Positions 26,997-62,817 of a stretch of DNA of 64,000 bases are shown piece after piece. Under the pieces are notes generated by a model. The model ran no database searches and was not told where the DNA came from. It was given only the letters and a program-made list of their open reading frames with translations. Source of the stretch: Schmidtea polychroa (taxonomy: Eukaryota); the NCBI GenBank assembly GCA_044892525.1, contig CM097885.1:14014001-14078000 (forward strand), read 5' to 3'. How positions within the stretch are numbered: the first letter of the stretch is position 1; each line of letters opens with the position of its first letter. A program made the translations under genes and the position numbers.

Positions 26997-28575
26997 ATGT
27001 TTGCAAGCGTATGGGAAATGATGAAGAGGAATAAATTTGAATTTGATAATGAAATCAGCAATGAATTGATATGCAGAATTTGCAAATGTTTAATGATAAA
27101 AGCTTGCCAAGCTCCTTGTGGTTGTGGCTTTTGTTCTGATTGCATTGAACATTATTTGGATGGAAAAGATAAATTCTGTCCAGGAGCAGGAAAACATTGT
27201 GGAAAGAAAATGATCAATTTCAATAAGGATGTTTCTGAATATCATGCAGCGAATTTAAGGATTTCAGAAGTGATAGTGAGATGCCCAATGCAAAATTGTC
27301 AATTCAAAGATGAATTAGAGGTGATGGAGAGCCACATGAGAACATGCAACAAGCAACCAATAAAATGTCCATTCAATAGAATTGGATGCGAAATGAATGA
27401 GGTGGATAAGGGCGAAATGAAAGTCCATCTCAGAGAGAATAATGAAGGCCATAGCAAATTATTGATCGATCAGATCAGTAATCTATGCAATGAGATGCAA
27501 GCAATGAGACACGAGAATGTGACATTGCGTAATGAAATTATCAATATCAATGTAAAATTGTATTTGTAATTAATTTAATTGATATTTGTGATTGTAGGTG
27601 AAACTGGGCAATATAGAAAGGAAAGAGGCGGAGAACAGAGATGAAATAGAAGAATTGAATGAGGAAATGGTGGTATTGAAGAATGAGAATCGTTCATTGA
27701 GAATGGAGATGGAGACAAATATTGGATCAATCAATCAAGTTTGATTATTGATTTGATTTATTATTAATGCAAAGCAGGTCAGACAGCAAATTGATGTGAT
27801 TGAATCAAAATGTCAACAGCAAATTGATGAGATGAAAGAGAAATGCGAGCAGCGGCTGCAACAGGGGAATGAAAAGGTGATTTATTGATTTATTGACGTG
27901 TTTGAATTTGAGATTCAGCTGCAGCTTGAAATGGCGAAATGCGCCAATGAAATTCGGCAGATTGAATCAAAATGTCAACAGCAAATTGATGAGATGAAAG
28001 AGAAATGCGAGCAGCGGCTGCAACAGGGGAATGAAAAGGTGATTTATTGATTTATTGACGTGTTTGAATTTGAGATTCAGTTGCAGCTTGAAATGGCGAA
28101 ATGCGCCAATGAAATTCGCCAGATTGAAACAAAATTAGCAAATAAAAAATATATAAATGACGGATTTTTTGAATGGCAAATCGATAAATTTTCACAACAA
28201 AAGAGATATGAAGATATTTACAGCGAGGCATTTTATTCCGGGCCAATCGGTTACAAAATGTGCTTGTTGGTGTTTATTGGGGGTGATTATGTTTATGTTG
28301 GTTTCTGTTTGATGCGTGGGGCAAATGATGGGCAATTGGATTGGCCGTTCAATCAATCCGTGACAATCGATGTGATCGATCCAGCAAATGGCAGCATTTA
28401 TATGAGCAGGTCAAGGAAATATTCAGATCGCCCTGATGCAGCCGGATGGGGGAAACCGTCAGATGACAGAAATGATCCAATTGGCTTTTATTATAATCCT
28501 GATGCCATCTCAATCAATAAATTAGCAGCCAAAAGTGATAAATTGCTGCTCAGGTGCAGAATTGAAAAATTATGA
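26997..28575 (+). CDS. TRAF-like protein (RING, TRAF zinc fingers, coiled coil, MATH); exons 26997-27551, 27598-27738, 27778-27876, 27919-28038, 28081-28575
   Basis: CRIC...CGCGFCSDC...CP RING; CPFNRIGC...H finger; MATH motifs FEWQI, FYSGPIGYKMCL, MRGANDGQLDWPF; four phase-0 GT-AG introns of 39-46 bp give an open frame. Confidence 0.88.
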
Positions 28576-34324: not shown

Positions 34325-35324
34325 CATATACTCAATAAATTGGCAATGCATTATTTTATAACATATTTTATTACAACATAATGTTTAAATAAGAAATCAA
34401 ATATTTTACATAAAGGATAAAAATATATTCATTACACATTCTTAGGTAGGTCAGACTTTGTGTTAGATAATTATATGGGGATAGGAGGCAAAGTTAAGGA
34501 CCGTCCCAGGTGGCACAAACTCTAGCAAACTCTTGAATATATAATTAATTTTCATTCGAATTTGATGCACAGTATTGTTATGCGGAATCAGAAAACTATA
34601 GAAACTATTTTATTATTTTATTAGTAATTTTTATTTATTTATTAATAAAGTAAAAACCTAATTTTATAGAATAATTCAATTCTACTGACAAATTAATCAG
34701 CAATTAATTCTTTTCACATTTTGATTTCGATATATAAATGAATTTTATCACTGAATAATTTATATTTATATTTAATTTTCAAAATTTTATGACAGAAATA
34801 AAAGAACTGATTACCTAAAGAATATGATGATGAGATAAAGGGTGGCCCTTGCAAGTAAAAGCAATTGTAATTCAACTCCATGATAATCGCAGTTGAGATT
34901 ATTAAAATTGGCCCCTAATCAGTAGGATTGATAATATTTATGATTATAATTTTATATTAAGACAGAAATTATAATTTTGGAATGCAATATGTAAAATTGT
35001 GTAAAAAAGAAAATTTTCAGAACGCGCTGGAAAGGTGGAATCGAACCACTTCGGTGTCAACCAACTACAGGTTTGAAGCCTGCACCCCGGACCGCCGACG
35101 CTCATCCCAGCAATTATTAATTTCTAATTCTCTTATAAATAGATTATATACACTTTACATTTTATTTATAATTATTATTGCAACAAATTATTTATCGCAT
35201 ATTAATTAAATTCCAGTACAAAGTTGATGTTATCGATATCTCTAGAAATATATTAATAATTTTATCTTCTTCTGGAAAATATCTCCATTAATGTCCAGCA
35301 GTATTTCTTACTATATATTGGCTC

Positions 35325-40270: not shown

Positions 40271-40860
40271 CTTTTAATAAAAATTATATTTTTATTTTAC
40301 ATATTACAATCATGTTTCAAATTGAGATTTCCTTTTACATTTACATTTTGTTTTATACTGTTTGATATATTGCATTTTATTCCAATTTTTACTATTAAAT
40401 TAATTATTGTAATAAAAAGTTAAGGATCGTCCCAAGTGGCACATAATTCTGTTGAGGTTTTAAAAGTAAATTATTAAATTATATTGTTCAGATTAAAAGG
40501 AAAAACCGAAATTGAATGGCGGTCAATCAGAGAAGCAATGGCAAAGAAAGATAAAAACAGAACTATAAAAGCGTACAATCCGACATGAAATGGGAAAATG
40601 CGCAAACCTGAGGAAGTGGAATAAATTGAAAAATTATCGAAATTGAAGCTGGAAAACGGGAGAGGGGTAGATTAGGGGATGGTGAAGAAGACAGTGAGCA
40701 AGAAATTGTTAGAAAATGTTTAGAAAGGGTCGTTAAACAGGCAAATAAAAAACAAAATATTAATTAATTAATTAATTGGCTAATGGGAAACCCGAGCTAA
40801 TAGGAAGCCCGAGCCAATGGAAACCCCGAGCGTGGCAATTTGGAAGGATAAACAAATGGG

Positions 40861-41194
40861 AGTAGTGAGGAATCTATGCACCCCAGCACCCCCACCCTCA
40901 AAAAAAAACAGCGCTATTGACCCATATTTTCCACATTTATATGCTTTTTTACCCCATATTCTTCACTTTTTTTAACTTTTAAACTTTGTCCCCTATTGCC
41001 ATTAACCCTTAATTTCTTCCCTTAAAAGTAAAAAAGTTCGGAATAGATGTATTTATAGATTAGTAATTCCGAGAAAAGGTAACGGGGTGCATAGATTCCT
41101 CACTACTTGGTCTTAAGGATTTAATGTTATAAGGATTTAATGTTATAAGAATATCAGATTACCTAATTCATAATGATCTAGGTCGCCTGATCAC
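40861..41194 (+). repeat. Polinton left TIR
   Basis: Reverse complement of 55379-55710 (2 substitutions and a 2-bp homopolymer indel by eye). Confidence 0.95.
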
Positions 41195-41267
41195 TTTTAG
41201 ATTTAAAAAAAATAAAAATTAATATCAAAACCAAAACATCGTATCCAACCAAAAAATTCTTTTAAAA

Positions 41268-41645
41268 ATGGAAGCTATTTTCAATTGTGAAATTTGTGAA
41301 AAAAATTTTAAAAATAAAACTGCTTTAACATCTCATAAAAAATCAAAAGACCATTTAATAAAAGCTAACACACTAGATGACACTAATTCCAAAATCTGTT
41401 CTAAATGTAAGGATAGATATTTATTTTCAGGTTATAAGAAGCATTTTAAAAATTGTATTGGAGTTCCTAAAAACAGAGAAATATTCGAATGTTCAGCATG
41501 TGGAAAAAAGATGAAGATAAAATCTTTTTACTTAAGACACATAGAAGATTGTGGTCTTGAAGCAAAAGATTCTGATTCAAACTCAATGACTGAAAAAGCT
41601 GAAAAACTAGAGTTTAATTGGGACAACTTCAATCACACGATGTAA
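41268..41645 (+). CDS. Zinc-finger protein, probably the frameshifted N-terminus of pPolB
   Basis: CEIC...H....H, CSKC...H...C and CSAC...H...C fingers; a short bridging open frame at ~41637-41767 leads towards the PolB frame. Confidence 0.7.
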   Translation: MEAIFNCEICEKNFKNKTALTSHKKSKDHLIKANTLDDTNSKICSKCKDRYLFSGYKKHFKNCIGVPKNREIFECSACGKKMKIKSFYLRHIEDCGLEAKDSDSNSMTEKAEKLEFNWDNFNHTM

Positions 41646-41820
41646 TTGTAGAAGTAAAACGAGGACCCAGATCAATCATGCAATATATAAGAGAAAATAA
41701 AAAAAAAATAATATCATCAATGGATGATGCTATAAAAAATTTGGTAGATCAAGATTTAATGTTATAAAAGTTAAATTTACAGGAAATGCAAAATACTGGA
41801 GAGGAGATGATTCAATCGCA

Positions 41821-44800
41821 ATGCCTCTAGATGTAAAAATTGAAACCTCATATAAATATTTATTTTCTACAAAAGCAGGAAATAAACTTGTTAATGATAT
41901 AGCTAAAGAATTGGAAGAAAAACAAGAACAGGTGGAACAAGAACTAGGAGAATCTAATTTAAGATTCCACTCTTTTCAAAATATAGAGATTGAATACTGG
42001 AGAGGCGCACCACCAAATCCTAAATCTTTTATTCACACACCATTCCCCTCCAACCATGTTATAAATGTACAGAATAAAGATAATAAATGTTTTCAATGGT
42101 CAATACTTGCACACTTACATCCTCAAGCAACTAACCCACAGAGAGTTCAAAAATATGAAGAATATGAATCTGAATTAATTTATCCAAAAGATTTTTCCCA
42201 CCCAATGAAAATTGAAGATGTTCCAGCATTTGAAAAATTAAATAATCTTAAAATTAATATTTATCAATTCATTCCAACCAAAATTACAAAAACTAGAAAA
42301 AATAAAAATTATAAACACATTATTCCTATTTACATTTCTAACATGGAAATCTCAGATGAAAAGAGAGAAGTAGATCTTTTAATATTAGAAGAAGGTAAAC
42401 CAGATGAAGACTTTGATGGAGAAGAATATGGTGAAGAGGTTCAAAGCGTTCACCCGAGGAGAGAAGCAGAAGAAGGCATTTCATTAGAACCAGAAGCAGA
42501 AAGCACTGCGTCTGGAGGCACTATGTTAGATAAAAAACTTCATTATATCTTAATAAAGAATTTTCAAAGTTTTATGAAAGGAAACACACTCATTCGTGGA
42601 GGCATATGTTGTAAAAGATGTTTATATCATTCAAGTTCAAAACTTGCTGCTATTAAACATGAGAGACTCTGTTGTAAGAATCAACCTGCTTTAATAAAAA
42701 TGCCACACAAGAAAAATGCTAATATGAGGTTTAAAAACTATTCCAATCTATTAGAAGCATTGGGAGTGGTTTATTGTGATTTTGAAGCTATAAATGTAAA
42801 ACTAAGACGAACAAAAACTAATACTGTAAAACTAACAAAACAATTACTCTCTGCTTATAAAATGTTTTTTAAAAGTAATTATCCAGAACTTGTAGAATCT
42901 AGAGAATATTCATTTAGAGGAACTTCTGACAAAGAGACTCTAGATCATTTTGTTAAAACTTTAAATAATCTAGAACATGAATTATATATAATATTAAAAT
43001 CCAACTTTCCTATGAATTTTTCAGAAGAACAAGAGGAAGAATATAAAAATGCAACACACTGCTGGATGTGTAAACAAGAGTTTGATATTCAGGAGGAGGA
43101 GGATGAGGAGCCAAAGGTTGCAGACCATGATCATTTTAAAAGAGAAAATAATTACAGAGGAGCAGCCCATAAAAAATGTAATCTCAATTGTAAAAAACCA
43201 ACACACATACCATTTATATTTCACAATCTTTTTGGCTATGATATTCACCTATTCATTAAGCATCTGGCCGCAAATGCTAAAAACTCTTTCAAGGTTATTG
43301 GACTTACAAAAGAAAAATATAAAAGCATTCAATATGGATGCTTTAAGTTTTTGGACTCGTTAAATTTCTTAGGGATGTCTTTGGATGGGATTGCTAAAAC
43401 TATGAACCCTGAGGATTTTAAATATACAAAAGAACATGTGTTATTAAAAAACAATATTCCATTAGAGGAATATAATACCTGTCTAGCAAAAGGAATCTAT
43501 CCATATGATTATATAGACTCCTTTGAAAAATATAATGAATTACTCCCACCCCAAGAAGATTTCTTTTCTGTTTTAACACAATCAGGGATTTCTGATCAGG
43601 AATATTCCCGTGCAGTTAAAATGTGGAATCTATTCAACTGTAGAAACCTTGGAGAATATACTGACATGTATCTTTCCTTGGATGTTTATATCTTAGCTGA
43701 TTGCTTCGAGACATTTTCAAAAGCTTTTGAATTAAAACCTTATAATTATATAACCGCTCCCTCTCTAGCTTGGGATATATTATTATATACCATATGGACT
43801 GATGAAGATGTAGCAGTAAGAAATAAAACTATTGAATTATTAGTTGAGCTTGATATGTTTAATGTATATAAACATAATATTAGAGGAGATATTTCTTCAG
43901 TACAAGGGAATAGAGAAATAAATGCTAATAATTTTACAACTCTTTATCCTAAATTTTTCAAAGATCCTGATGCTCTATATGTAGAAATAACAAACCCAGA
44001 AGATAGTAAGGAAATAATGGAAGGTCTTTCTAATCCTTCTGAAATAATGTATATAGATGCAACAGCTTTATATGCGGGAGTAATGACTCAATACCTTCCA
44101 ATTGGCAAGTTCACCTGGAAAGAACCCACTGAGGAATTAATACAAGAAATTCTAAAAACACCAAAAGATTCTCAATTTGGATATGTTGTAGAATGTGATC
44201 TTGAATATCCCAATGAAATAAAATCCAGAACTAGATATTTTCCATTTGCTCCTGTAAGAAGAAAGATCTCTCCTGAAGAACTATCAGATTGGCAGATTGC
44301 TCAGAATAGAACACCATGTATAAAACTTTTATGTGATCAAACAGATAAAACTGATTATCTTTGTCATTATAGACTCCTCCAGTTTTATCTCTCACATGGA
44401 ATGGTTTTAAAAAAAGTACATTCTATAATTAAATTCCGACAAGCTCCTTTTATGAAAAAAATTCATCGAGGGAAATATCTTAAAAAGAAATGCAGCAAAG
44501 AGAGCTGGAAATGCTTTTCTTGATATGATTTATAAACTTTTAAACAATGCAGTCTTTGGAAAGACAATGGAGAATATTGATAAATATACTCGTGTAGAGC
44601 TCTTAACCAATACAACAAAAGATATTAATAAATATAATCGAATAATTGGAAAGCCTACATTTAAAAATGCAGAGATATTCTCTAGTAACCTTATAGCTAT
44701 AGAGATTAAAAACTCTGTAAAAACTTATAATAAACCAATCTTTATAGGTTTTTCAATTTTAGAACTTTCAAAGCTTCAAATGTATGAGACCTACTATGAT

Positions 44801-45661
44801 GTTCTAGTACCCCATTTTGGAGATCGAATATCCATGCATGCTATGGACACTGATAGTATGTTTTTAAAAGGTCATAGTAAAGATTTAAAAAAGGAAATAA
44901 GTGAAAACGAAACCTTAAATAAATTAATAAACAACTCTGGAGAATTATTTACTTTTAAAGATGAAAAACCAAATACTCCAATAAGTGGAGGAGTGTTTAT
45001 TAGACCTAAACAATATTCTCTTGAAATGAAAGACAAACCAATTATGAAAGAGCATACAATAAAATTTATAATAGGGGAGGGAGAAGGATCTGTTGAAATA
45101 GATCACACATTTGAATATCCTTCATTCCCTGAAAACCCGAAAAGCTATAAAGAAAATAAAAGTAAAGGAATTCAAAAATCAGTGTCAAAAACCTTCACAC
45201 ATCAAGAGTATAAAGATTCATTAAATATAAATTATAAAAATAAAATTGCTAAAACGCATCATCTTAAATCAGAGAAACATAATATATATCTTGAAGAGTG
45301 TAACAAGATTGCTATAACAAATTATGATGATAAAAGATTTATACTTTCTGACTTGAAGACAACATTACCTATTGGAAATGATTTAATCCCTATAATAAAA
45401 AATCTTGATAAAATAAATGAAATTTATAACCTAGAGATTACAGACCTTCAACTTGCTAAAGTAGAAATCCAATATCCTGAAATATTAATTCCTAAACCTT
45501 TATATAATCAAGTTCAAAATATAAAACCTATAGAACTTAAATATTTTAATACTGATCCTGAATATATCCAAGGACTAACACCAGAAGACTTTAAATCACA
45601 TAAATTAATGTTAAAAAGCATTACTGCAGAAATAATTATAAATCAATTACGACTGGTCTAA
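41821..45661 (+). CDS. polB: Protein-primed family B DNA polymerase, split by one extra A in the A7 run at 44455-44461
   Basis: NKDNKCFQW, Exo YCDFE / HNLFGYD / FLDS, KGIYPYDY, YIDATALY, KLLNNAVFGKT, DTDS, KQY, DDKR. Removing one A gives ...MKKFIEGNILKR...MIYKLLNN. Confidence 0.93.
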
Positions 45662-45685
45662 GAATTAGAATTTTAACACTATAAA

Positions 45686-46240
45686 ATGATGGAAACTAAA
45701 AATCAAGAAAATAACATTTTTGAAATTATAAAAAATATTACTAATTTAAAGGATAACAGATGTAAAGGAATACAGAGAGTGGTTGCAAAGAATCTTTCTC
45801 ATCAAGATTATATAGATACATTGAATCCAAATCATAAAGATAAAATTGATGAAATACATCAACTTAAAAGTGAAAACCATGATATTCACTTGATAGAATC
45901 TCAAAAAATATCATTATCAAATTATGATGATAAGAGATTCATACTAAGTGATTTAAAGACAACTCTACCTATTGGAAATAATTTAATCCCTATAATAAAA
46001 AATCTAGAAAAGTTGAATAAGTTATATGATACAAAGATTACTGATCTTGATATTTATAATGTTGAAATTATTTATCCCGAGAGAGAAATCGAGAAACCTT
46101 TATATTCTCAAGTTTTTAATCCTATATGTTTAGAACTTAAATATTTTAATACTGATCCTGAATATATAAAAGGTCTAAGTGATAAAGAATTTAAAGATCA
46201 TAAATTAATGATTCATAGGTTGGCTTTCAACCATAACTGA
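45686..46240 (+). CDS. Stand-alone paralogue of the pPolB C-terminal ~160 aa
   Basis: Shares KGIQ, HxLKSE, NYDDKRFILSDLKTTLPIGNxLIPIIKNL and ELKYFNTDPEYI with the upstream polymerase end. Confidence 0.85.
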   Translation: MMETKNQENNIFEIIKNITNLKDNRCKGIQRVVAKNLSHQDYIDTLNPNHKDKIDEIHQLKSENHDIHLIESQKISLSNYDDKRFILSDLKTTLPIGNNLIPIIKNLEKLNKLYDTKITDLDIYNVEIIYPEREIEKPLYSQVFNPICLELKYFNTDPEYIKGLSDKEFKDHKLMIHRLAFNHN

Positions 46241-46334
46241 AACCAACGATATTTAATTTTTTAATAATAAAATGTCGACAATTAATTTAAGCAACTATAG
46301 CAACCTGATCTACTTTTTTAAAAATACACCCATT

Positions 46335-46931
46335 TTATAAGTAAGAATTCTTTAACCATTTTTCTCGAGATGTTTTTTTATTACTTATAACATTAGCCAC
46401 CATACCCTCCCTTTTTAATCTTATAACCTCATTCTTTATATCTTGTATTATTTGATTTGATTTCATTATTTCTTCGTCTGTCAGGATTCCATCTTCCAAA
46501 GCTTTTAATTGAAATAAAAATAATTTAGAGATTCCTAATTCTATTGATAAACAAACTTCTCTATATAAACTTTTCTTTTTAGAAGTATAAGATAATGAAA
46601 CTATTTCAGTTAAGAAACCATCAGCCACAGAAATACTTCCAAGTATTACAGGTGCAAGAGTAACAACTGGTAAAGTTATGGGTAAAATAACTGTTAATAT
46701 TGCAGATGCAAATCCTAAAGAATAACCTATAACTTTTAAAACTGTATTCCCTTTATTCCATCTATTTTTAATTTTTTTATAATGCTTTAATAAATCTTGT
46801 AAATGTAAGGTTTCTGATTTAAATTCTTTTACTCTCATAATTTCAAGTTCTGTGGGAGCCGAGGCCTTGGAAGAATAATATCCTGATGATCTCAATTCTG
46901 GGTAAATTTTTTCTTCTCTTACTTCTTCCAT
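46335..46931 (-). CDS. Polinton membrane protein (PW/GasderminX-like)
   Basis: N-terminal IYPEL...ASAP, central double hydrophobic segment, ALEDGILTDEE motif; the family assignment is from recall. Confidence 0.65.
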   Translation of the reverse strand: MEEVREEKIYPELRSSGYYSSKASAPTELEIMRVKEFKSETLHLQDLLKHYKKIKNRWNKGNTVLKVIGYSLGFASAILTVILPITLPVVTLAPVILGSISVADGFLTEIVSLSYTSKKKSLYREVCLSIELGISKLFLFQLKALEDGILTDEEIMKSNQIIQDIKNEVIRLKREGMVANVISNKKTSREKWLKNSYL

Positions 46932-46939
46932 TTTAATAA

Positions 46940-47587
46940 TTAAAAAAATAAGACTTTATTCTTCTGAGCACCATCTGGTACCAATACTCGGATATCAAAA
47001 GAAACTCTTGTTGAAAGGATGTCTTTATACAATTCTCTCAATGCTTTACGAACTTCATCAACATCAACCTTTTTTTCATAAAATATTAAATCTATATATT
47101 GTACAAGTGAACTAGAAAAATGAATATTCTTACTTTTAACTTTATGTAGTCCATGTGAATGAGTATTAACATACCAATCTTCGTGTGGTAAATCATAACT
47201 AGTCATTATAACATCACCCTTTTCAAGCTTACTATTATAATCACATTTCACAAACCATTTCATTCTTTCATTATCATCATCAAACAAAAAGAAATAAGGA
47301 TCAATAATTTTTACAACCATAAAAACACCCCATTCTTTACTGTTTGTTGTTATTAAACTTGGTTCTATAAAATGTTTATATGTATGGGGTAATAATGTTT
47401 TATTCTGTTCTAATTCAGCAGCTCTTTTTCTAATACTATGTGTGGTGTTAATGTGTGTTCCATGAGACTCTAAATTTGAAATTCTTTTATTAAATGATGT
47501 AATCATCTCATTTATTATATTATATATTGCATTAAATTTTATGGAATATAAGAACTCATTTATTAATAATTTAAAATGAATCTTCAA
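46940..47587 (-). CDS. Hypothetical protein (heptad coil, RKR site); candidate fibre/spike
   Basis: Intact 215-aa ORF overlapping the penton stop (ATGA). Confidence 0.6.
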   Translation of the reverse strand: MKIHFKLLINEFLYSIKFNAIYNIINEMITSFNKRISNLESHGTHINTTHSIRKRAAELEQNKTLLPHTYKHFIEPSLITTNSKEWGVFMVVKIIDPYFFLFDDDNERMKWFVKCDYNSKLEKGDVIMTSYDLPHEDWYVNTHSHGLHKVKSKNIHFSSSLVQYIDLIFYEKKVDVDEVRKALRELYKDILSTRVSFDIRVLVPDGAQKNKVLFF

Positions 47588-48348
47588 ACCTGTTTCAAAT
47601 GTAAATACATTGAAATCTCTTCTCCATTAAAATCAATCAATTCTCCTTCTTGATTAAGAATTTTAAAATTAATATCCATTATATATTTTCTACATAAAGG
47701 TAAATAATTTGGAGGATTCATTCTTTCAACTATTTTATATCCCATAGGAACTGTGTTTGAGGGAAAGGAATATAAAACATTTGTTTGTTTACCATTATTA
47801 TAAGAACCTGTTATACAATCGCAATGAATATTTATTGTGTTTGTATTTATTATTTTTATAATATGTTCTGATGTTATTATTTTATCTTCTTTTATTGTTA
47901 TATCCATAGGTTTAAATCCTAAAACTGTGTGAAAGAAACAATTATCTAAAAAACTAATTTTTATATTCTTCAAAGTCATTACACATTTTGAAGTTGGTAT
48001 ATCCATTTTAATTTTAATACCTTCATTTGTTTTTTTAGAAAGTATATCATTTAAATCTTTTATCTCATATGCCCCAGGTTCTATTGTTATAATTTCTGGT
48101 TTATGCCCATCACGAGTTTGAATAGTAAATTTATTATTATCTTTAGTTATATTAAAAATAGTATTATAAGCACAAAACCATAATAGCCCCAATTCATAAT
48201 TTAAATTTTGATCTAATTTAATTGAATCTTGAAAGTTTATAGTAAACTCTGATTCTTTTGAATTTATAGATAAAGTTCTTGAATATTTATCTGACATTAT
48301 GTTTACCATTTTTTTTAAATTATCTTCCGGAGGGTTGTGAAGCTTCAT
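47584..48348 (-). CDS. Minor capsid protein (penton, single jelly roll)
   Basis: YELGL, IEPGAYEI, INIHCDCI.GSY.NG, YLPL...I.FKILNQEGELIDFNGE...LHLK. Confidence 0.85.
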   Translation of the reverse strand: MKLHNPPEDNLKKMVNIMSDKYSRTLSINSKESEFTINFQDSIKLDQNLNYELGLLWFCAYNTIFNITKDNNKFTIQTRDGHKPEIITIEPGAYEIKDLNDILSKKTNEGIKIKMDIPTSKCVMTLKNIKISFLDNCFFHTVLGFKPMDITIKEDKIITSEHIIKIINTNTINIHCDCITGSYNNGKQTNVLYSFPSNTVPMGYKIVERMNPPNYLPLCRKYIMDINFKILNQEGELIDFNGEEISMYLHLKQV

Positions 48349-48396
48349 TTCTTTAGTAGTAAATTCATATAGTAAAAATCCTTATAGTAAAAATCC

Positions 48397-48861
48397 TTAT
48401 AGTAGAGATTCTAGATCATTATAAATTTCTTGAATTATAGATTCAAAATCCTGCGTATGCCCCTTTCCCTCTCCCTTATTCAATCTATACAAAACATATA
48501 AACTTAAAATACCACATATTTTAGTATTCAAAGGTTGAACTTGTAAAGAGTTAAAAGTATAACCATTTGGGGAATCAATCGGAGAACCCCTCAAGAGATA
48601 ATCTTCAACTTCTTTAGTAGGTTTAATCCCAAAAGAATCAAAGTAGATAGATTTCTTATATATACAAACCCAATGAGATCCTTTTTCATTTGAATTTTGA
48701 TAATTGATTATTATATTCAGGGGACTCTCCAGACTTGATAATTCATCATTCATTAATATTTTAATTTTTAAATTTAAATAATTTGCATAATCTTTTAAAT
48801 CAAAATTTGTTTTTGCATTTATTCCAAATGTTTTTAAAAAATCTAATATTGAAGGAGTCAT
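48397..48861 (-). CDS. Adenain-like cysteine protease
   Basis: GSHWV, YFDSFG, Q....ICG catalytic His-Asp-Gln-Cys pattern. Confidence 0.92.
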   Translation of the reverse strand: MTPSILDFLKTFGINAKTNFDLKDYANYLNLKIKILMNDELSSLESPLNIIINYQNSNEKGSHWVCIYKKSIYFDSFGIKPTKEVEDYLLRGSPIDSPNGYTFNSLQVQPLNTKICGILSLYVLYRLNKGEGKGHTQDFESIIQEIYNDLESLL

Positions 48862-48883
48862 TTTGTATTTTAAAACTTCGTAT

Positions 48884-49777
48884 TTATAACTTCGTATACT
48901 TATTAAATTTATCTTTTGAAATTATTCCTTGTTTTAACAAATCTTTAGAAATCTTTAAAATATCAGAATCTAAATTATTATGTCCTGCTTTCCTTGCAGC
49001 TAATAGTTTTCTTAATTCAATAAAAAGATTGATGGGATTTGGTTTACCACCTTCACTAATTAATCCCTCTCCCTCTGTAACAACATAACCCTTTTCATTT
49101 TTATTTAAATAATTCTTTAAATCTTGAATATATTTTGCTTTAGAACTAGCTCTTATTAATCTTATTAAATTTAAATATTTTTTAATTTCTTCAACATCAT
49201 CTGAAGAATATCCACAAAGTAATCTATAAAAATCATCTGTAAATTCAAAGTCTAAATATTCATTATTATAAACATTTTGTGAATGAATACGTGATTTATT
49301 TTCTGAATTTGAATATAAAGTAAAGTTTTGTTTATTAATTGTTATTATTTGATATCCTTCAGTATTAGTATTAAATGTGGGTCTAATTGAAGGAGGTAAA
49401 TCATCTCTAATTTTAGGATCAACTTTAAGAGCTTTTGTTTTTAAAAACATTTCTTCTTCTTCCACATTAGAAATTCTTCTGCGTTTTCTTTGATTTCTTT
49501 CAGAATGACTTTCAGAATGGTTTTCACTGGATTCTTTTTCTTTATCCTGCCACTCTAGTTCTTTTATTTTTTGTTTTTTATCTTCTAACTCTTTAAATTT
49601 TGCTTGCTCATTGAAATCTTCCAACTCTTTTATAGCTTTAATTGTTGGCCCCTGTTGTTGTGTTATTACCTCATTTAATATTATAGATTCAGCATGTTGA
49701 GTTGTATCTTTTTTATTATATTTATCTTGTTCTGATTGTAATTTTTTTAAAAGTGCTAATCTTTCTTCATATACCAT
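48884..49777 (-). CDS. Polinton protein of unknown function
   Basis: Intact 297-aa ORF with a basic NLS-like RKRRR, GEGL and a C-terminal LLAARKAGHN...LLKQGII helical motif. Confidence 0.7.
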   Translation of the reverse strand: MVYEERLALLKKLQSEQDKYNKKDTTQHAESIILNEVITQQQGPTIKAIKELEDFNEQAKFKELEDKKQKIKELEWQDKEKESSENHSESHSERNQRKRRRISNVEEEEMFLKTKALKVDPKIRDDLPPSIRPTFNTNTEGYQIITINKQNFTLYSNSENKSRIHSQNVYNNEYLDFEFTDDFYRLLCGYSSDDVEEIKKYLNLIRLIRASSKAKYIQDLKNYLNKNEKGYVVTEGEGLISEGGKPNPINLFIELRKLLAARKAGHNNLDSDILKISKDLLKQGIISKDKFNKYTKL

Positions 49778-49799
49778 TTTAATGGTATCAAAAATGGTA

Positions 49800-50378
49800 T
49801 CATAGTTCGAAGGGCTTCAAGTATAATCCTTTACCATTTTTAGTTTTACAAAGGCATCCATTCTTTAAAGATTTACATATTTTTTTTAAATCTTCTTTAT
49901 CTTTTGAAGATAAAGATTCAGATGTAGAAATTTGATTTTTTAAAAAATCATTTAAACCTCTACCTTTATAAGGATCAAGATAGAGACCTTTGCCCTGAGA
50001 CTTTTGCCGACTCCCCTCATATGGATTAAGATAGAGACCCTTTCCAACGGACACTCCCCCTTTAGCTTGCCCTACCTTCTTCATTGAATCGATTTCAGTT
50101 TGTAGTTTTTCTTTTTCTAGGTCTGTCTTTTGAGATTCTTTAGCTTTTTGAACTGTAGTTGCAATTCCTCCAGCTATTCCAGCAGCACCTGATAAACCAG
50201 CAATGATTGCAGGTATTAAAGCAGCTAATGGAAGAATGCCACCTTCTTTAGCTTCGTGGAGCTTCGCTCTAACTTGTTCTTTTACATGTTTTCCAATAAA
50301 ATATTTTTTACCATCAATTACTACTGATTTATTTTTATTTGAATTTATTAATTCTTGCAAAGATTCTTCAGTTGTCAT
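49800..50378 (-). CDS. Core/membrane-active virion protein (adenovirus pX/mu-like)
   Basis: EGGILPLAALIPAIIAGL resembles adenovirus pX GGILPLLIP; three GKGLYLxP repeats; likely start is MTTEE with AAAATG context. Confidence 0.7.
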   Translation of the reverse strand: MTTEESLQELINSNKNKSVVIDGKKYFIGKHVKEQVRAKLHEAKEGGILPLAALIPAIIAGLSGAAGIAGGIATTVQKAKESQKTDLEKEKLQTEIDSMKKVGQAKGGVSVGKGLYLNPYEGSRQKSQGKGLYLDPYKGRGLNDFLKNQISTSESLSSKDKEDLKKICKSLKNGCLCKTKNGKGLYLKPFEL

Positions 50379-50394
50379 TTTATAATAAATAAAA

Positions 50395-51186
50395 ATGGAT
50401 ACTTGGAAACCAATTTTAAATAGACATAAGAGTAAATTCAATAATAAATTATTTCCTGATAATTTTAGATTATTAATTGTTGGTTCTTCTGGATGTGGAA
50501 AGAATGTACTTGTTTTGAGAATGTTACTTGAAGATGATTTTTTAGATTATAATAATTTAATCTTTTATTCTACAACCATAAATCAACCAGAATTACAAAT
50601 TTTGAAATGTGGATTTGAAAATAAATTAACTAAAAAAGCAATAATTGATATTTTTAAAAATCAACATAGGTGTCCTGAAGAAGTTTTTCAACCTTGTGAT
50701 ATGGTTGATTGGTATAAGGAAAAGATTTTAGAATCAGATATTAGTAATAAAAATGATTATATTTGTGAAGAAGGGCAGGAGGCAATTCAAGTTTTATTCT
50801 CTAATAAACCTGAAGATGTTTTACATTGTGATTTACTTCCTAAAGATAAAAAGAATCTAGTTATATTTGATGATGTTGTTAATATGAAAAATCAAGAGAT
50901 TCAAAAGAGTTACTTTACACGAGGTCGACATAATAATTGTAATGTTATTTATATATCTCAAACATATTATGCTTTAGATAAAAATTCAATAAGAAATAAT
51001 TCCAATTGTTTTATATTTTTTAAATTAGATCGCCGTGATAAGAATATGATTTATAATGATTTATTTTCAAATGTTGAACCTGATAAGAATATGTTTGATA
51101 TGTTTGTTGATAATCATTGGAAAGAGAAATATAATTATATTTATTTGGATAGAGAAGAAGCTGAAATATGGAAAAGTTTGTTTTAG
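50395..51186 (+). CDS. A32/FtsK-like DNA packaging ATPase
   Basis: Walker A GSSGCGKN, Walker B LVIFDD, RGRHNN...ISQ, IRNN. Confidence 0.92.
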   Translation: MDTWKPILNRHKSKFNNKLFPDNFRLLIVGSSGCGKNVLVLRMLLEDDFLDYNNLIFYSTTINQPELQILKCGFENKLTKKAIIDIFKNQHRCPEEVFQPCDMVDWYKEKILESDISNKNDYICEEGQEAIQVLFSNKPEDVLHCDLLPKDKKNLVIFDDVVNMKNQEIQKSYFTRGRHNNCNVIYISQTYYALDKNSIRNNSNCFIFFKLDRRDKNMIYNDLFSNVEPDKNMFDMFVDNHWKEKYNYIYLDREEAEIWKSLF

Positions 51187-51197
51187 GGCTTGTCGAC

Positions 51198-52583
51198 TTA
51201 AAAATCTGTTTTCTGTAGTTCATTATTATAAAATCTACCTAATATTTTTTCATTATTTAAATCAAAGATGCTATATGTTATTGGAGTTGTATAATTTATT
51301 TTATTTATAATAAAAATTTCATTTGTCCATTTTGCTGTGAATCCTTTTTCAAATTTATTTTTATATTTAAATATTCTTACTCGGTCACCAATTTTAAACT
51401 TTGGTTTTTCAATAACATCATTTTCAATATTTACCACTTTAATGGTTTCAGGCTTCATGGAAGCATTTAAAGGTGTTAATTTTATAGAACTATGTACATC
51501 ATTATTATATTCATTTACAATCTTTTGTAACAATTCATTGTTCCATTTTTGTTTTCCAATAGCAGTAAAATATTTCCACATTTTATTTTTTAATGTTCTA
51601 TTTAATCTTTCAACTACGACTGCTTTTCCTTCGTTTTCTGTTGAATATAATTTAATATCATTTTCATTTAAAAACTTTGTAAAAACTTTGTTATAAAATT
51701 CTGTTCCTTTATCACACCATAAATATTTTGGGATTCTTTGATTTTCTTCAAATATATTTTCAAATGCTTCTGTAATAGAATATCCTGTTTTATTTTCTAA
51801 ACACCTTGCAAAAGCAAATCTTGTATATAAATCTATTACAGTTAAAATTATTTTATATTTTTCAGGGTCTGATGATTTGGGCATAAAGACTAAATCTGCA
51901 GACCATGTTTGATCTTTTTCATGTACTTGAACTTTTAAATATTTTTTATTTTTTCTAAATTCATGGTGTAATTCCTTTGCATATTTTATTTCTGATTCTG
52001 TTGGGGTTTGTAAACTAGTCTTGGATATATTCTCAAGGGATCTTTCAATGTCTGCTTGTTCGATAATCTTTTTATAAGCAACATCTTTTGCTATTCTAGG
52101 AAGTCTTGCACCCATGGTGATCGGACTGTGTCCTAAGCCTATGAAAATCTTACCTTTCATTGCTAATTTAACTAGAGCTCTTTGAATCTTTTCTTGGGTT
52201 GATGGATTTTGGATACTAATTAAATCATGTATTAAATTCACATCTGCAACATGTCTATCTCTAAGATTTGTTGAATTGTATGCAATGTCATGTTTTAAAG
52301 CTGCTTGATCAATTCTATTTATTGGTTCTTCTCCTTGTTTGGGATTATTATTTTCATCTAATCTAATATCTAATCTTGTTCCTGGTCCGGTGTAGTTGTG
52401 TTTAAATAAATGTCTTTCACCTGGATATTTTTCTGTAGTAAAAGGTTTTAATATTGAAGATGTTGTTTTTGAAGATTGTAGATCGCCTCCTGTATGTTTT
52501 TTAGTTTTTAAATGACTTGCTTTATGATGTCTTGTAACTTGACAATTACAAGTTTCACATCTCCAATATTTATTTAGAGACAT
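51198..52583 (-). CDS. Zinc finger - parvovirus-type PLA2 domain - retroviral-like (rve) integrase fusion
   Basis: CETC...H....H; YTGPG...DQAALKHDIAY...AD; DDE core WSADL / WCDKGTEF / VERLNRTLK; C-terminal FKIGDRVRI...W. Confidence 0.92.
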   Translation of the reverse strand: MSLNKYWRCETCNCQVTRHHKASHLKTKKHTGGDLQSSKTTSSILKPFTTEKYPGERHLFKHNYTGPGTRLDIRLDENNNPKQGEEPINRIDQAALKHDIAYNSTNLRDRHVADVNLIHDLISIQNPSTQEKIQRALVKLAMKGKIFIGLGHSPITMGARLPRIAKDVAYKKIIEQADIERSLENISKTSLQTPTESEIKYAKELHHEFRKNKKYLKVQVHEKDQTWSADLVFMPKSSDPEKYKIILTVIDLYTRFAFARCLENKTGYSITEAFENIFEENQRIPKYLWCDKGTEFYNKVFTKFLNENDIKLYSTENEGKAVVVERLNRTLKNKMWKYFTAIGKQKWNNELLQKIVNEYNNDVHSSIKLTPLNASMKPETIKVVNIENDVIEKPKFKIGDRVRIFKYKNKFEKGFTAKWTNEIFIINKINYTTPITYSIFDLNNEKILGRFYNNELQKTDF

Positions 52584-52612
52584 TTTAAAATGTTAAAATA
52601 TCAGGGATTATA

Positions 52613-53905
52613 TTAAGAATCTCCCCTAAAATTTTCGATTATTGAAATCTTTCCACCATATAATTTCATTTCTATTTTCTTTTCTTCTAATATTAATGTA
52701 TATACTTTAGCTTTAAAATTAGAATCCTTTGTTACATGAAGTGTAACATCAACATTATTTATGGCTAATCGATCATCTTGGTCTGATACATTTATACAAA
52801 ATATAGAATATAAATTTTTGAAATCTTCTAAACTTAATTGCGGTTCAACTTTGAAATCATAACATGTTTCAATATAATTTAGATATGGGAATATGTTTTC
52901 ATTATTTTCAATATTAAATTCCATTCTATTTATTGGATAATAAGAACTATTTAATTGAATTTGTATTGTTTTTAAATTATCATCTCCAATCTTTTGAATA
53001 AATAGATTGTTATTTTTTTGGAAAGATGAATCTGTTTCTTTGAATCCAATCAAGATATATCTTGGTCGGTATGCTAAATTTGCTACCTTTATAGAATATG
53101 TTGAACCCTCTGTCATACTAAATTCACTACAGATTCTATTTAAATAATTTACATTTATAGACTTGTTGGAATTTAATCTTTCAAGGAGTTTAATCTCAGA
53201 ATGTGGGTTTAATGTCCATTCAGGTATATGTAATTCAAGTGTTGATAATTTTAATTTAGCTTTTGTATCTACAGCTCCATAGAACAATCTTTTATCACCT
53301 TCTACTCTATTACAGATGAATTCTATAAAAACATTATGAAGTATACGATTATAGTTTTGAAGGAATCCAAACAAGTGTTTTAATTCAAAATAACCTTCAA
53401 AATTTTTAGATTTATAAAGTTCAGCTCTTTTATGGTAACCATGGTTTACATCTAAACCATCTTTATCTAAATCCCCTTTATTAACATCAGGAATCCAACC
53501 TGTTAATTCACCATATTCGTTTTTATAATCACAACCAGTCAAAATAAAATTTAACATTGTAGAATATACTCCCGGATGCAAAACAGTTTCAATTTCTGAT
53601 GATCCTAGTTTTAATCTCATGTTGGAGAATAAATTTGGAAAGAAATTATTTTCTAGGGTTATATCTTTGTTTGCTTCAATTTCTAATTCGATTTTATAAT
53701 ATAATTTGGCATTACAAATATCTATTGGGTTTGATGTTTGAAGAGATTGAAAAACTATATCACCCCTACGATTTAAGTTTGCAATAGATCCTGAAGTTGG
53801 AGAGATTTTTAAAATATCATTTTTTTTAATTTCATGAGTAAATTCTTTATTATAATCAAGATTTAATTTATTTTTTTCTTGAATTTTAAGATTTATATTA
53901 TTCAT
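52613..53905 (-). CDS. Major capsid protein (double jelly roll)
   Basis: 430 aa; NNFFPNLFS, LKHLFGF, PRYILIGF, LNSSYYP, IFCINVS motifs and gene context. Confidence 0.85.
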   Translation of the reverse strand: MNNINLKIQEKNKLNLDYNKEFTHEIKKNDILKISPTSGSIANLNRRGDIVFQSLQTSNPIDICNAKLYYKIELEIEANKDITLENNFFPNLFSNMRLKLGSSEIETVLHPGVYSTMLNFILTGCDYKNEYGELTGWIPDVNKGDLDKDGLDVNHGYHKRAELYKSKNFEGYFELKHLFGFLQNYNRILHNVFIEFICNRVEGDKRLFYGAVDTKAKLKLSTLELHIPEWTLNPHSEIKLLERLNSNKSINVNYLNRICSEFSMTEGSTYSIKVANLAYRPRYILIGFKETDSSFQKNNNLFIQKIGDDNLKTIQIQLNSSYYPINRMEFNIENNENIFPYLNYIETCYDFKVEPQLSLEDFKNLYSIFCINVSDQDDRLAINNVDVTLHVTKDSNFKAKVYTLILEEKKIEMKLYGGKISIIENFRGDS

Positions 53906-53961
53906 TTTTATATATTAAAATTTACACACACAAAATAGGATTAATTAAATATATTATGTAA

Positions 53962-54043
53962 GCCATTATAGCGGAGTGGGAATAGGCTTCAATTTTATCA
54001 CCGGGAGTACCGGGTTCAATTTTCGATTTTGGTCAATTTTTTT
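53962..54043 (+). ncRNA. tRNA-like Pol III unit 1
   Basis: A-box TAGCGGAGTGG (53969), partial B-box GGTTCAATT (54013), T7 terminator. Confidence 0.5.
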
Positions 54044-54205
54044 CGATATTTTTTTTTCAACGGAATCTGATTTAGCGTACTGATTTTAGTATATATTTAA
54101 ATTTTCAGATGGATCTGAGTGGTAGTTGTCGAGAAAATGAATAATTAATTATTAATTTCATCAATAAATAGTCACACATTAACAACTTATTTTGTATTGA
54201 GTATA

Positions 54206-54286
54206 GCTCTAATAGCTTAGTGGTAATAGCACTCGACTGCATTGCCAATACCAATGGGTTCAAATCCCATTTCGGTCATTTTTTTT
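54206..54286 (+). ncRNA. tRNA-like Pol III unit 2
   Basis: A-box TAGCTTAGTGG (54213), B-box GGTTCAAATCC (54257) in a perfect T-arm ATGGG-TTCAAAT-CCCAT, T8 terminator. Confidence 0.65.
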
Positions 54287-54443
54287 CAAATTTTTTTTTA
54301 ACGAAATATTGATCAGCATACTCGATTTAGTACTTGTACAAATTTTTAAGGAGATTGGTCAACGGCAACTCTTGGAAATTTAAGATCAAAAACGTTTTAA
54401 CTACCAAAAATTAATATATCCAATAAAAAAAATATTTATAAAA

Positions 54444-54740
54444 ATGGATGAGTTAAAAGAAAGAATGAGAAATGAATTGAATGAAGTTAAACATAAGAGA
54501 ATGAAAAGAAGAGAAGAAGAACCATTAGAATACATCAAAGAGTTGATGGTAGATAATGAAAAGTCTCGACATTTTTATATGAAGGCTGTAGATGTTGCTG
54601 ATATAAGATTGAAGAAAATGAAACAATTACAGGAAAGAGTTAAAGAACTTGAATCGATTATTTATAGTCTAAAAAATGACAAAAATTCAAACCTTGATGG
54701 CGCAGTGGGAATAGACTGGCACAGTGGTTCAAATGGATAG
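54444..54740 (+). CDS. Small coiled-coil protein
   Basis: 98-aa charged helical ORF with TATAAAAATG context. Confidence 0.6.
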   Translation: MDELKERMRNELNEVKHKRMKRREEEPLEYIKELMVDNEKSRHFYMKAVDVADIRLKKMKQLQERVKELESIIYSLKNDKNSNLDGAVGIDWHSGSNG

Positions 54741-54773
54741 TGGTTCAAATCACATCTGAGGTTAGTTTTTTTT
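54691..54773 (+). ncRNA. tRNA-like Pol III unit 3
   Basis: A-box TGGCGCAGTGG (54698), B-box GGTTCAAATC (54742), terminal stem AACCTTG/TGAGGTT, T8 terminator. Confidence 0.55.
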
Positions 54774-55378
54774 CAACATAAAATAATATTAAAAATTTGA
54801 AAATAATATTGAAAATAGTGTGGGTATCTTATATTTATAAAGTACTTGTATATTTTATTTTATTTTATTTTATTTATTTTATTTATTTTATTTATTTTAT
54901 TTATTTTATTTATTATTTTATTTTTTAAACATAAATATGAAAAAAAAAATATTGAAACGGGTGATGGCCCCGAACCGGTAATTATCGCCACCTTTCTTTC
55001 GAACACCCCCGGATCGATTCCGGTAATGTGCACATTTTTTTCTCAGTTGTTTTCGGACCTCTTTCGGATTCGCTTTCGAATTCATTTGTACTTTCGAGCA
55101 GCACACTTAAAACGCCGATGAAATCGTATTCGAGCGAGAAGCGAATAATAAGGTGTGCTGCTATTATCGAATTGATTCTGATGTATGAGTCTGGCCAGCT
55201 TGTATATTGGAAGAGATTTGATAAACGAAAGAGGTTGAATAAAAAAAAATGATCCGGATCAAAAAAAAACTGTTGAGAGGACAGTGAAAAAAAAAAAAAA
55301 AAAAAAAACCACTGTCCTCTCAGAGCAGTTTTACTATTTCATAAAATTTTTTATTTTTAAAACTTTCAAAACCTTAAG

Positions 55379-55710
55379 GTGATCAGGCGACCTAGATCAT
55401 TATGAATTAGGTAATCTGATATTCTTATAACATTAAATCCTTATAACATTAAATCCTTAAGACCAAGTAGTGAGGAATCTATGCACCCCGTTACCTTTTC
55501 TCGGAATTACTAATCTATAAATACAACTATTCCGAACTTTTTTACTTTTAAGGGAAGAAATTAAGGGTTAATGGCAATAGGGGACAAAGTTTAAAAGTTA
55601 AAAAAAGTGAAGAATATGGGGTTAAAAAGCATATAAATGTGGAAAATATGGGTCAATAGCGCTGTTTTTTTGAGGGTGGGGGTGCTGGGGTGCATAGATT
55701 CCTCACTACT
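55379..55710 (-). repeat. Polinton right TIR
   Basis: Inverted copy of 40861-41194. Confidence 0.95.
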
Positions 55711-56821
55711 AATGGGGAATTCAGAAAACAATTATCAAAACAGCCGGATAAACGAGGGTAAAAAAAGAAGGGGAATTAGGAAGAGGGTCAACAGAAATAG
55801 ATAATTAGGGAATGATAACTAAGGAAGTCAAAACCAATTAGGTCAAAAATAGGGCAATTACAACGATTATGGGAGTATATAAGGAAACTCCATATTCACA
55901 TAATCGGCGATAGCCTTAGGTAAGAAAGAAGAAAACGACATTAGGAGTTAGAAGAATAGAATAAAAGAAGAAAAAGAATTATAGGAAAACTGAAGAGTTA
56001 GACAAGGAGTGTCAAAAGAGATTGGATCAGACAACGGAACTAAATCAAAAGGTGAAACTTAATTTTTTAATCGTACAAGGTTGAGACCTTCCAGAGAGGA
56101 GTCCGATCTGAAATTGTGTGAGATTGCGGTTAACCAACAGTGTAAATAATTTTTGAGAGTTGTAAATTTTTATAAAACAAATATACGTTGGGAGTTTGTG
56201 TTTATTGATTTTGGAACACGTGGAGTCAGAGTAACCAACGGTTCATTTTGATATCATAAAACCCAACAATTCAATTCTACTGATAAATTAATCAGTAGAT
56301 AATTCTTTTCACATTTTGATTTCGATATATAAATGAATTTTATCACTGAATATTTTATATTTATATTTAATTTTCAAAATTTTATGACAGGATAAAAGAA
56401 TTGATTACCTCAAGAATATGATGATGAGATGGAGGGTGGCCCTTGCTAGTAAAATCAAATATAATTCAACTTCATGATAATCGCAGTTGAGATTATCAAA
56501 ATTGTCCCCTAATCAGTAGGATTGATAATATTTATGATTATAATTTTATATGTTATGAGAGAAATTATATTAATGAATGCAAATATGTAAAATTATGTAA
56601 GAAAGAAAATTTTCAAAAATCGCTGGAAAGTTGGAATCGAAACACTTCGGTGTCAACAACCTACAGGTTTGAAGCCTGCACCCCGGACCGCCGAGGCTCA
56701 TCCCAGCAATTATACATTTCTAATTTTCTTATAAATAGATTATATACACTTTACATTTTATTTATAATTATTATTGCAGCAAATTATTTATCGTAAATTA
56801 ATTAAATTCCAGTACAAAGTT

Positions 56822-60890: not shown

Positions 60891-62188
60891 TTAAAATAAT
60901 TTGCAGCAATAATAATTATAAATAAAATGTAAATATATATAATATATTTAAAAGAGAATTAGAAATTTATAATTGCTGGGATGAGCCTCGGCGGTCCGGG
61001 GTGCAGGCTTCAAACCTGTAGTCGGTTGACACCGAAGTGGTTCGATTCCACCTTTCCAGCGATTTTTGAAAATTTTCTCTTTTACTCAATTTTACATATT
61101 TGCATTCCATTAATATAATTTCTCTCATAATATAAAATTATAATCATAAATATTATCAATCCTACTGATTAGGGGATAATTTTGATAATCTACACTCCAA
61201 TTATCATGAAGTTGAATTACTATTGCTTTTACTTGCAAGGGCCACCCTTTATCTCATCATCATATTCTTTAGGTAATCAACTCTTTTATTTCTGTCATAA
61301 AATTTTGAAAATTAAATATAAATATAAATTATTCAGTGATAAAATTCATTTATATATCGAAATCAAAATGTGAAAATAATTAACTACTGATTAATTTATT
61401 AGTAGAATTGAATTATTCAATAAAATTAAGTTTTTACTTTATTAATTAATAATGAATTATGTCATTTTATCACAATATTATAAAAAGTTATAAATAAAAT
61501 AATAAATTAGTTTGTATAGTTTTCTGATTCCGCATAACAATACTGTGCATAAAATTCTAATGCAAATTAATTATACAAAAATGCAGTGGCGTAGCTAGAA
61601 TATGTGCCACCTGGGGCGATCCTTAACTTTGCCTCCTGTCCCCATATAATTATCTAACACAAGTCTGATCTAACTAAGAATGTGTAATAAATATATTTTT
61701 ATCCTTTATGTAAAATATTTATTTTCTCATTTAAACATTATGTTGTAATAAAATATGTTATAAAATAATGCATGGTCAATTTATTGAGTATAGGACAATA
61801 TCCCCTCGGACAATATCCTCCTAGACAAATACCCCCCACTCTTGTTAATAATGCATATAATTTAGTATGAATATAATAATAAAGACATTGCAGTTTATTA
61901 ACTAGTAATTATAAATTAATTAATTGCCCGGGGATATTGTCCGAGGGTATATTATCCAGGATGATATTGTTATGGGGATATTGTCCTTATACCCAATTTA
62001 TTACAATAATTATGCTTGATGAATAAAATTGTGATAATATTAATTGACAAATTCGCATCGTTCTGAATTTTATTTAAATAATCTTTACAAATATAATTCT
62101 AAAATACAAAATCAAAATAAAAAAACAGAAAAATAATTTTATTGAAAATATGTCTCGCAATCTCCCTTCAGAAAACCTTTCCAACAAT

Positions 62189-62817
62189 CTACTGAAATGA
62201 TTTACAACTCTTCAAGTATTCTGATGATAATTTCCCTGCTGTTTCCAATGCCTCGTACAGTCCATCACCGGAAACTGCACAACATGCCTGCAGGTGCCAT
62301 TTGTGAGTGCGCTCCAGTTTCGATAATTCTAACCCTTCCACAATTCTACTTGGTGACATGGCATTTGGTAAATCTTGTTTGTTTGCAATCACCACTATTG
62401 GAATCTGAATCAATGTTAAACATTTCAATTTCCTATGAAATCTAGATTTACATTTCTCATCTCGTCACATTCAGCAATCGTAAATAATTCATCTCTTGAT
62501 TCCTTCAACCTTTCCACATCATTGCTGTCCACTACATAAATCAATCCATGACAATTCGTATAGTAATGTCTCCATAACTGTCGAATCTTTTCTTGACCTC
62601 CCACATCCCAAATTGTGAATTTCAAACCTTTCCCAATTGAAACTTCCTCCACATTGAATCCGATTGTTGGAATCGTTGTCACAGTTTCATTGAGTTTCAA
62701 TTTGTACAGAATTGTGGTTTTACCAGCAGCATCCAGTCCCAACATTAGGATTCTCCGAGGATCAGATTGAGACAACTCGTTTAGCAATTTGTATAATCTA
62801 CTCAAAAGTATTCCCAT
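62189..62817 (-). CDS. ARF/ARL-family small GTPase, intact copy 3 (193 aa; exons 62817-62452 and 62404-62189)
   Basis: MG myristoylation start, [28 protein letters not shown]; 47-bp GT-AG intron; no premature stop. Confidence 0.93.

Follow-up and report, generated by a model that had tools for sequence, protein, structure and literature searches.

The question raised by this locus is why a phospholipase and an integrase should be encoded as one protein. In Schmidtea polychroa, a single open reading frame (ORF) of a Polinton/Maverick element joins a parvovirus-type phospholipase A2 (PLA2) domain to a DDE integrase. A preliminary description, made from the letters of the DNA, took the gene for a new fusion and for a polyprotein that is packaged and possibly cut. 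We followed it up in the whole stretch of 64,000 nucleotides that was analyzed (positions 14,014,001 to 14,078,000 of contig CM097885.1, assembly GCA_044892525.1; here referred to as "the window", with positions counted from its first letter).

The gene occupies positions 51198–52583 of the minus strand, and one stop-free frame of 461 aa spans this entire interval, as the preliminary description had it. The domain scan that it had proposed found Phospholip_A2_4 (aa 58–139, E 7.7e-9) and rve (aa 221–313, E 8e-12) in this same ORF, both above the Pfam cut-offs. The PLA2 domain (aa 55–151; 52131–52421, minus strand), delimited by Pfam and alignment, shows all the features of PF08398 that were looked for, namely the profile match, the YxGPG calcium loop (Y64-T-G-P-G68), the HD pair (H98-D99, with Y102) and the downstream Asp (D114), so that the calcium loop and the catalytic residues described earlier are intact. 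Against AAV VP1 and secreted PLA2 the domain gives weak profile matches, with E values of 0.0035 and above. The integrase core (aa 200–380; 51444–51986, minus strand), recognized by Pfam, alignment and structure match, carries the triad D230/D291/E325 and is followed by a C-terminal beta domain (aa 394–461; 51201–51404, minus strand) seen in the alignment and the AlphaFold model. The Pfam scan found no chromodomain in the ORF, including after the C-terminal beta domain, and the integrase is thus of the intact DDE type without a chromodomain that had been claimed. The zinc finger fared less evenly. A C2H2-type pattern (C9-x2-C12-x11-H24-x5-H30) is present at aa 9–30 (52494–52559, minus strand) and the model predicts a beta-beta-alpha fold there, but the Pfam scan gave no match for it at E 0.05.

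The AlphaFold model of the ORF has a mean pLDDT of 84, and its modules are separate: the small beta-beta-alpha unit, the PLA2, the integrase core and the C-terminal beta domain; the linkers at aa 31–43 and 151–162 have low confidence. Its best PDB matches are foamy-virus integrases. In an alignment of 50 sequences, H98, Y102, D114, D230, D291 and E325 are invariant and D99 is nearly so.

The ORF lies within an element of 14,850 bp (40861–55710) whose ends read AGTAGT...ACTACT. Its terminal inverted repeats (left 40861–41225, plus strand; right 55346–55710, minus strand) are identical at 351 of 363 aligned bases, and a 6-bp target-site duplication flanks it on the plus strand (left copy AATGGG at 40855–40860, right copy at 55711–55716). 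The end motif (AGT)2...(ACT)2 and the 6-bp duplication are those given for Polintons in the portion of PMC8097293 available to us. The other Polinton/Maverick features found are the terminal inverted repeats, the DDE rve integrase, the double jelly-roll capsid protein, the A32-like ATPase and the protein-primed family B polymerase. Capsid, ATPase and protease-like genes adjoin the PLA2-integrase ORF. The double jelly-roll major capsid protein (52613–53905, minus strand; Pfam E 1.4e-26) has one GG at aa 417–418 near its C-terminus, and the A32-like packaging ATPase lies at 50395–51186 (plus strand; Pfam E 2.7e-9). A 192-aa ORF at 49800–50378 (minus strand) is homologous, as a gene of its own, to the X half of PLA2X, the pX-like core protein; it matches the PLA2X tails of six loci in BLAST (E 8e-10 to 1e-6), matches Adeno_PX weakly (E 0.04) and has seven GG/GxG motifs. 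A predicted adenain-like cysteine protease of 154 aa (48397–48861, minus strand) has tblastn matches in 14 of 25 loci and no Pfam match, and it contains a His/Asp/Gln/Cys pattern which we take to be the adenain-like protease motifs. A predicted penton, or minor capsid protein (47584–48348, minus strand), is conserved in relatives, has no Pfam match and resembles published "Penton" entries when compared by eye. The polymerase (41821–45661, plus strand) consists of two ORFs with a break near 44.5 kb; the Pfam scan gave no match for this region, which matches an intact 1320-aa ORF of a relative (L003) at E 4e-87. Since its polymerase is broken, this copy cannot replicate alone. The PLA2 domain is the only one in the window.

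Several other observations were made in the window. A 184-aa ORF (45686–46240, plus strand) repeats the C-terminal part of the polymerase, with 73% over 300 nt, 600 nt downstream. Inside the element, positions 54206–54278 (plus strand) are tRNA-like (32.4 bits against the Rfam tRNA cut-off of 29; not called by ARAGORN), and similar stretches were seen by eye near 53965–54035 and 54955–55030; these may be either SINE remnants or RNAs transcribed by Pol III from the element. The flanks contain two near-identical intronless Arf ORFs (5534–5926 and 62425–62817), tRNA-SeC calls at 35024–35111 and 60975–61061, and TRAF-type zinc finger and MATH ORFs (26997–28575), the last of which suggest that the host is an animal. 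The Arf ORF at 62.4 kb and both tRNA-SeC calls sit in large inverted repeats of the flanks.

The preliminary description had asked whether the fusion is conserved in sibling copies, and contigs of four sequencing runs, aligned to the gene, indicate that it is. The indels inside the ORF measure 15, 3, 6 (net), 24 and 3 nt, their sums being multiples of three, and none of those listed falls between 52030 and 52478. Contigs from two runs span the GLG junction without gaps. The 40 listed of the 112 differences include 26 substitutions in the ORF (12 synonymous, 14 non-synonymous and no stop), so the frame is kept without a stop among the listed differences. Joints of low depth in one run leave out 157 or 208 nt around the junction and probably represent deleted copies. 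In run X2, an in-frame insertion of 24 nt at 52478 in one sibling copy duplicates GG-D-L upstream of the PLA2.

We then compared the gene with its homologues. The search gave 778 matches, and the counts rest on the best 120 of them. PLA2 followed by integrase in one chain was found in 116 of these best 120, a proportion which is no family-wide frequency, as the match ranking favours fusions. HDxxY is kept in 113 of the 116 fused homologues, whose linkers have a median length of 18 aa and a minimum of 4. The finger is optional: its pattern occurs in 12 of the 116, and some relatives have DUF5679 at that N-terminal position. In a quick tree, from which no ancestral state is claimed, the integrase of the window belongs to a group of 14 rows, all in frame (SH-aLRT 99). 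The closest short homologues (P0121 and P0122), which have 72–73% identity to the PLA2 part and end exactly at the GxG position, sit on contigs of 5.5–6.5 kb. Thirteen viral contigs of 3.3–3.5 kb (L111–L123) match the Polinton-type PLA2 profile, and the ORFs of four of them, examined by eye, show no sign of the Polinton gene set; a single-protein scan of viral contigs gave no match.

The arrangement has also been annotated before. In their supplement, Buck et al. 2024 (PMC11071296) label a gene "PLA2-Integrase" in two genomes, Adinto6405 and Adinto15303, in the first of which the X half is a gene of its own, "Macc". PLA2 is absent from the main text of that paper in the portion available to us, and the available portion of Starrett et al. 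2021 (PMC8502044) describes only PLA2X. A literature search outside subscription journals and Repbase returned no main-text account of a PLA2-integrase fusion. Because fusion is usual among the close homologues (116 of the best 120) and two published genomes are already labelled "PLA2-Integrase", the circumstance that the preliminary description had itself named as removing the novelty is what we found. The PLA2-integrase fusion is not new, and the gene in the window adds a member to a labelled class.

The two labelled genomes, Adintovirus nemertoderma6405 (BK066529) and sediment15303 (BK066759), are close parallels to the gene in the window in the available records (PMC11071296). Compared by eye, both have in one frame GG-D, PLA2, K..G.G and an ELHH-type integrase that ends without a chromodomain, as in the ORF of the window. 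They differ from it in lacking the N-terminal C2H2 finger. Their fusion appears there as a supplement label only, and the available text proposes no mechanism for it. Adintoviruses are defined in the same paper by an integrase with a C-terminal chromodomain, an OTU-like domain on PolB and a Hexon reciprocally recognisable by BLASTp; Pfam and the alignment found no C-terminal chromodomain in the integrase of the window. The PLA2X of Alpha adintoviruses, as given in the available parts of PMC8502044 (and named "CAP" in PMC5803895), has a PLA2 of the same family with the same GxG end. In those viruses the partner of the PLA2 is the pX-like core protein, and the integrase has its own gene with a chromodomain, whereas in the window the PLA2 is joined to the integrase and the X half, homologous to the 192-aa ORF, is a separate gene.

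What the joined chain might be for is suggested by two glycine sites that bracket the PLA2 and lie at the borders of the linkers to which the model gives low confidence. One is GG/D (aa 32–34; 52482–52490, minus strand), a predicted protease site upstream of the PLA2, and the GG/GS-D site at this place is kept in 61 of 82 homologues. The other is GL/G (aa 149–151; 52131–52139, minus strand), at once the conserved end of the PLA2 and a predicted protease site; GxG or GG stands at the PLA2 end in 101 of the 116 fused homologues, and the motif is missing, by the pattern used, in the remaining 15. The sequence MKGKIFIGLG, previously described as part of a linker, proved in the alignments to belong to the PLA2 domain, as its conserved final helix and terminus, and an end of this type closes the PLA2 in fused, stand-alone and PLA2X proteins alike. 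The variable linker itself covers aa 152–199 (51987–52130, minus strand). The adenovirus protease rule includes a hydrophobic P4 residue, and such a residue is not conserved at the candidate sites. Both sites fit the rule of the mavirus protease, which cuts after GG (GG-X) and within GY-G (PMC6048507). According to the available part of that study, mavirus virions hold the integrase MV02 and also the predicted hydrolase MV13, the latter in two fragments around GK-G. Against cleavage, the counts of GG and GxG in the other proteins of the element are near expectation, with no enrichment.

We consider it reasonably probable that the finger-PLA2-integrase chain is a precursor packaged in the capsid and predicted to be cut by the element's protease at both glycine sites. 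The observations behind this model are the single frame, the intact catalytic motifs, the two conserved glycine sites around the PLA2 and the adjoining genes for capsid, ATPase and a protease-like protein. The chain would enter the Polinton capsid uncut, and the element's own protease would cleave it at GG-D and GL-G; the freed phospholipase, if active as a lipase, would then serve membrane entry and the freed integrase would insert the DNA on arrival. The PLA2 would thus be a virion-bound partner that is carried on the core protein in PLA2X and on the integrase in the element of the window. The polyprotein reading of the preliminary description is therefore plausible in its substance, being supported by the bracketing glycine sites, mavirus packaging and the frameshift coupling in relatives described below, and it does not hold as a novelty.

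Mavirus is a close system as well. In the available part of PMC6048507, the integrase (MV02) and a lipase-like protein (MV13) are packaged and a cysteine protease (MVP) cuts at GG-X/GX-G. It differs in that the two proteins come from separate genes, MV13 is an alpha/beta hydrolase and not a PLA2, and the host is a protist.

The protein might instead work uncut, the attached PLA2 serving the integrase as a handle for packaging or for targeting to membranes, with glycine motifs that merely cap helices. All architectures have GxG, even stand-alone PLA2 proteins with their end at this motif, and it may for this reason be structural; moreover, the linkers are often short and our pattern does not find the motif in 15 of the 116 fused homologues. 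Against this stand the second conserved GG site at the other edge of the PLA2, the in-frame duplication of the GG-D-L stretch in one sibling copy, and the agreement of both sites with the demonstrated specificity of the mavirus protease, which apparently cuts a packaged hydrolase (PMC6048507, available part). We regard an uncut protein as unlikely.

The joining of PLA2 to integrase extends to relatives in which the two are not in one frame. We examined 127 sequences (128 loci, less the two duplicates L109 and L098, plus the element of the window), and 42 of them have a PLA2 directly upstream of the integrase start. With decayed loci included, 15 of these 42 are in frame (two with a stop), 20 have the integrase at -1 and seven at +1. 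Where both halves are otherwise intact (25 loci), the corresponding numbers are 10, 13 and 2. An A-run of at least six at the junction is present in all 15 shifted and none of the 10 in-frame intact loci, whose longest run is four; the Fisher p value is 3e-7, or 2e-5 with L002 and L071 counted as in frame, and both values are optimistic since the loci are related and not independent. These two loci, whose breaks lie away from the junction, were left out of a clean set of 11 loci at -1. In this set, a canonical slippery heptamer stands in phase in nine loci (A_AAA_AAC in six of the nine), the background being 12 in 2640 codons, and among the six loci with a run of six A, five have it exactly in the A_AAA_AAC phase; the other two of the 11 have no canonical heptamer. 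The signal lies after the GxG end of the PLA2. No Met precedes the first catalytic Asp in nine of the 11 loci, and two have a Met upstream of the integrase core. Only hairpins were searched as downstream structures: strong ones occur in three of the 11 (z -3.0 to -4.3, 5–7 nt downstream) and in none of the 10 in-frame controls, the other eight loci being without strong structure.

In the relatives, the neighbouring core genes are in one frame and stop-free in 20 of 21 matches, the exception being a polymerase split over two contig ends. One element of 15.6 kb (L003) has all core genes whole. In the quick tree, the -1 loci fall into at least three separate supported groups; one of them (L076) has a different integrase N-terminus. 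A PLA2/integrase-protease-ATPase unit occurs three times in tandem in one locus (L077), and its -1 junction is the same each time. As predicted from these sequences, the relatives likely join PLA2 and integrase by a programmed -1 frameshift, although the data do not separate polymerase slippage from ribosomal shifting. PLA2 and integrase are given as two separate genes in a published entry, AdiRDEB01002094; judged from the protein text, their ends look like the same overlap. Short PLA2 proteins, mostly without context and including fragments, were not taken as frameshift cases, and only 19 of 150 representative ones end in a short K[KN] tail. In three loci (L055, L081 and L127) the integrase is in the +1 frame, and the junctions of the first two each contain a pair of consecutive A-runs, at which one -1 shift could be followed by a second.

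The linker of the gene in the window contains no hidden frameshift signal, with neither an A-run of six or more nor a slippery heptamer, and its integrase is in frame; heptamers that happen to be in phase are frequent in other parts of this AT-rich ORF and were given no weight. Any analogy to gag-pol thus rests on the relatives. In retroviral Gag/Gag-Pol, -1 frameshifting places an abundant virion protein upstream and the integrase-containing frame downstream. The relatives share with this system an A_AAA_AAC-type heptamer and sometimes a hairpin. They differ from it in that the element is a dsDNA one and the upstream partner is a phospholipase, and the gene in the window itself is in frame. 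A -1 shift at the A-run just after GxG, if ribosomal, would give much free PLA2 and little PLA2-integrase, like Gag and Gag-Pol, whereas the clade of the window reads through in frame and its ratio of PLA2 to integrase would be 1:1. The same kind of recoding is predicted for other genes of this virus group, since Buck et al. (PMC11071296, section 16) give -1 shifts for Penton and Hexon-Adenain only and, in the part available, not for PLA2-integrase. Our literature search, outside subscription journals and Repbase, found no report of a PLA2-integrase frameshift, and the supplements media-2, -4 and -7 of that paper may annotate it.

The shifted junctions could also be assembly errors or homopolymer decay, with an in-frame fusion or separate translation as the only working state and no recoding, which would leave the in-frame gene of the window unaffected. 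Seven of the 42 loci are indeed at +1, L002 and L071 break at other places, and nine in-frame homologues from long contigs carry a lysine run in the linker at the protein level; in addition, the published set, as far as available, lists such PLA2 and integrase ORFs as two genes, and frames are mixed at the long A-runs of the PLA2X-protease junction. However, rare errors would leave most loci in frame, and at most two of the 15 intact A-run loci (L002 and L071) could be so. The exact A_AAA_AAC phase in five of the six clean six-A loci, the hairpins 5–7 nt downstream in three loci, the 20 unbroken genes among 21 neighbours and the identical junction in the three tandem L077 copies also speak against error or decay, which we find rather improbable.

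The PLA2X-protease junctions were seen in five loci (L005, L006, L008, L009 and L010), where the two frames meet across long A-runs, in frame in two, at -1 in two and at +1 in one. As the protease there has its own ATG, either homopolymer noise or a further site of recoding may lie behind this.

Finally, the fusion might act inside the producing cell, its PLA2 helping the integrase-DNA complex through internal membranes, for example the nuclear envelope, or remodelling them while the element transposes, a reading that we find very unlikely. In its favour, the literature searched records no particle for elements of this kind (Maverick particles are unobserved according to the available part of PMC8097293) and the copy number is high in some sequencing runs, but the PLA2 belongs to the parvovirus type, which is carried by virions, and is elsewhere joined to a pX-like core protein or stand-alone, the capsid module is kept in all long loci, and mavirus packages its integrase (PMC6048507, PMC6428243, available parts).

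Returning to the packaged precursor, we lean somewhat towards a wider reading, in which the integrase of several animal Polinton lineages is never made apart from a PLA2, the two being joined in frame, as in the window, or through a conserved -1 frameshift behind the PLA2 domain. This would be a gag-pol-like arrangement in a dsDNA virus: the PLA2 would be the loading handle, the shift would set the ratio of entry enzyme to integrase, and the maturation protease would free both. This pattern of coupling matters more than one extra member of the fusion class, and the frameshift coupling in relatives is the part that we did not find in print within the literature searched. For annotation, it means that many Polinton integrases probably have wrong starts and that PLA2-integrase frameshifts are currently scored as decay. 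For the biology of these elements, a conserved coupling of PLA2 to integrase with recoding signals is evidence that the integrase is made for a particle, and it bears on the question of whether Polintons of animals give rise to infectious particles with the integrase inside.
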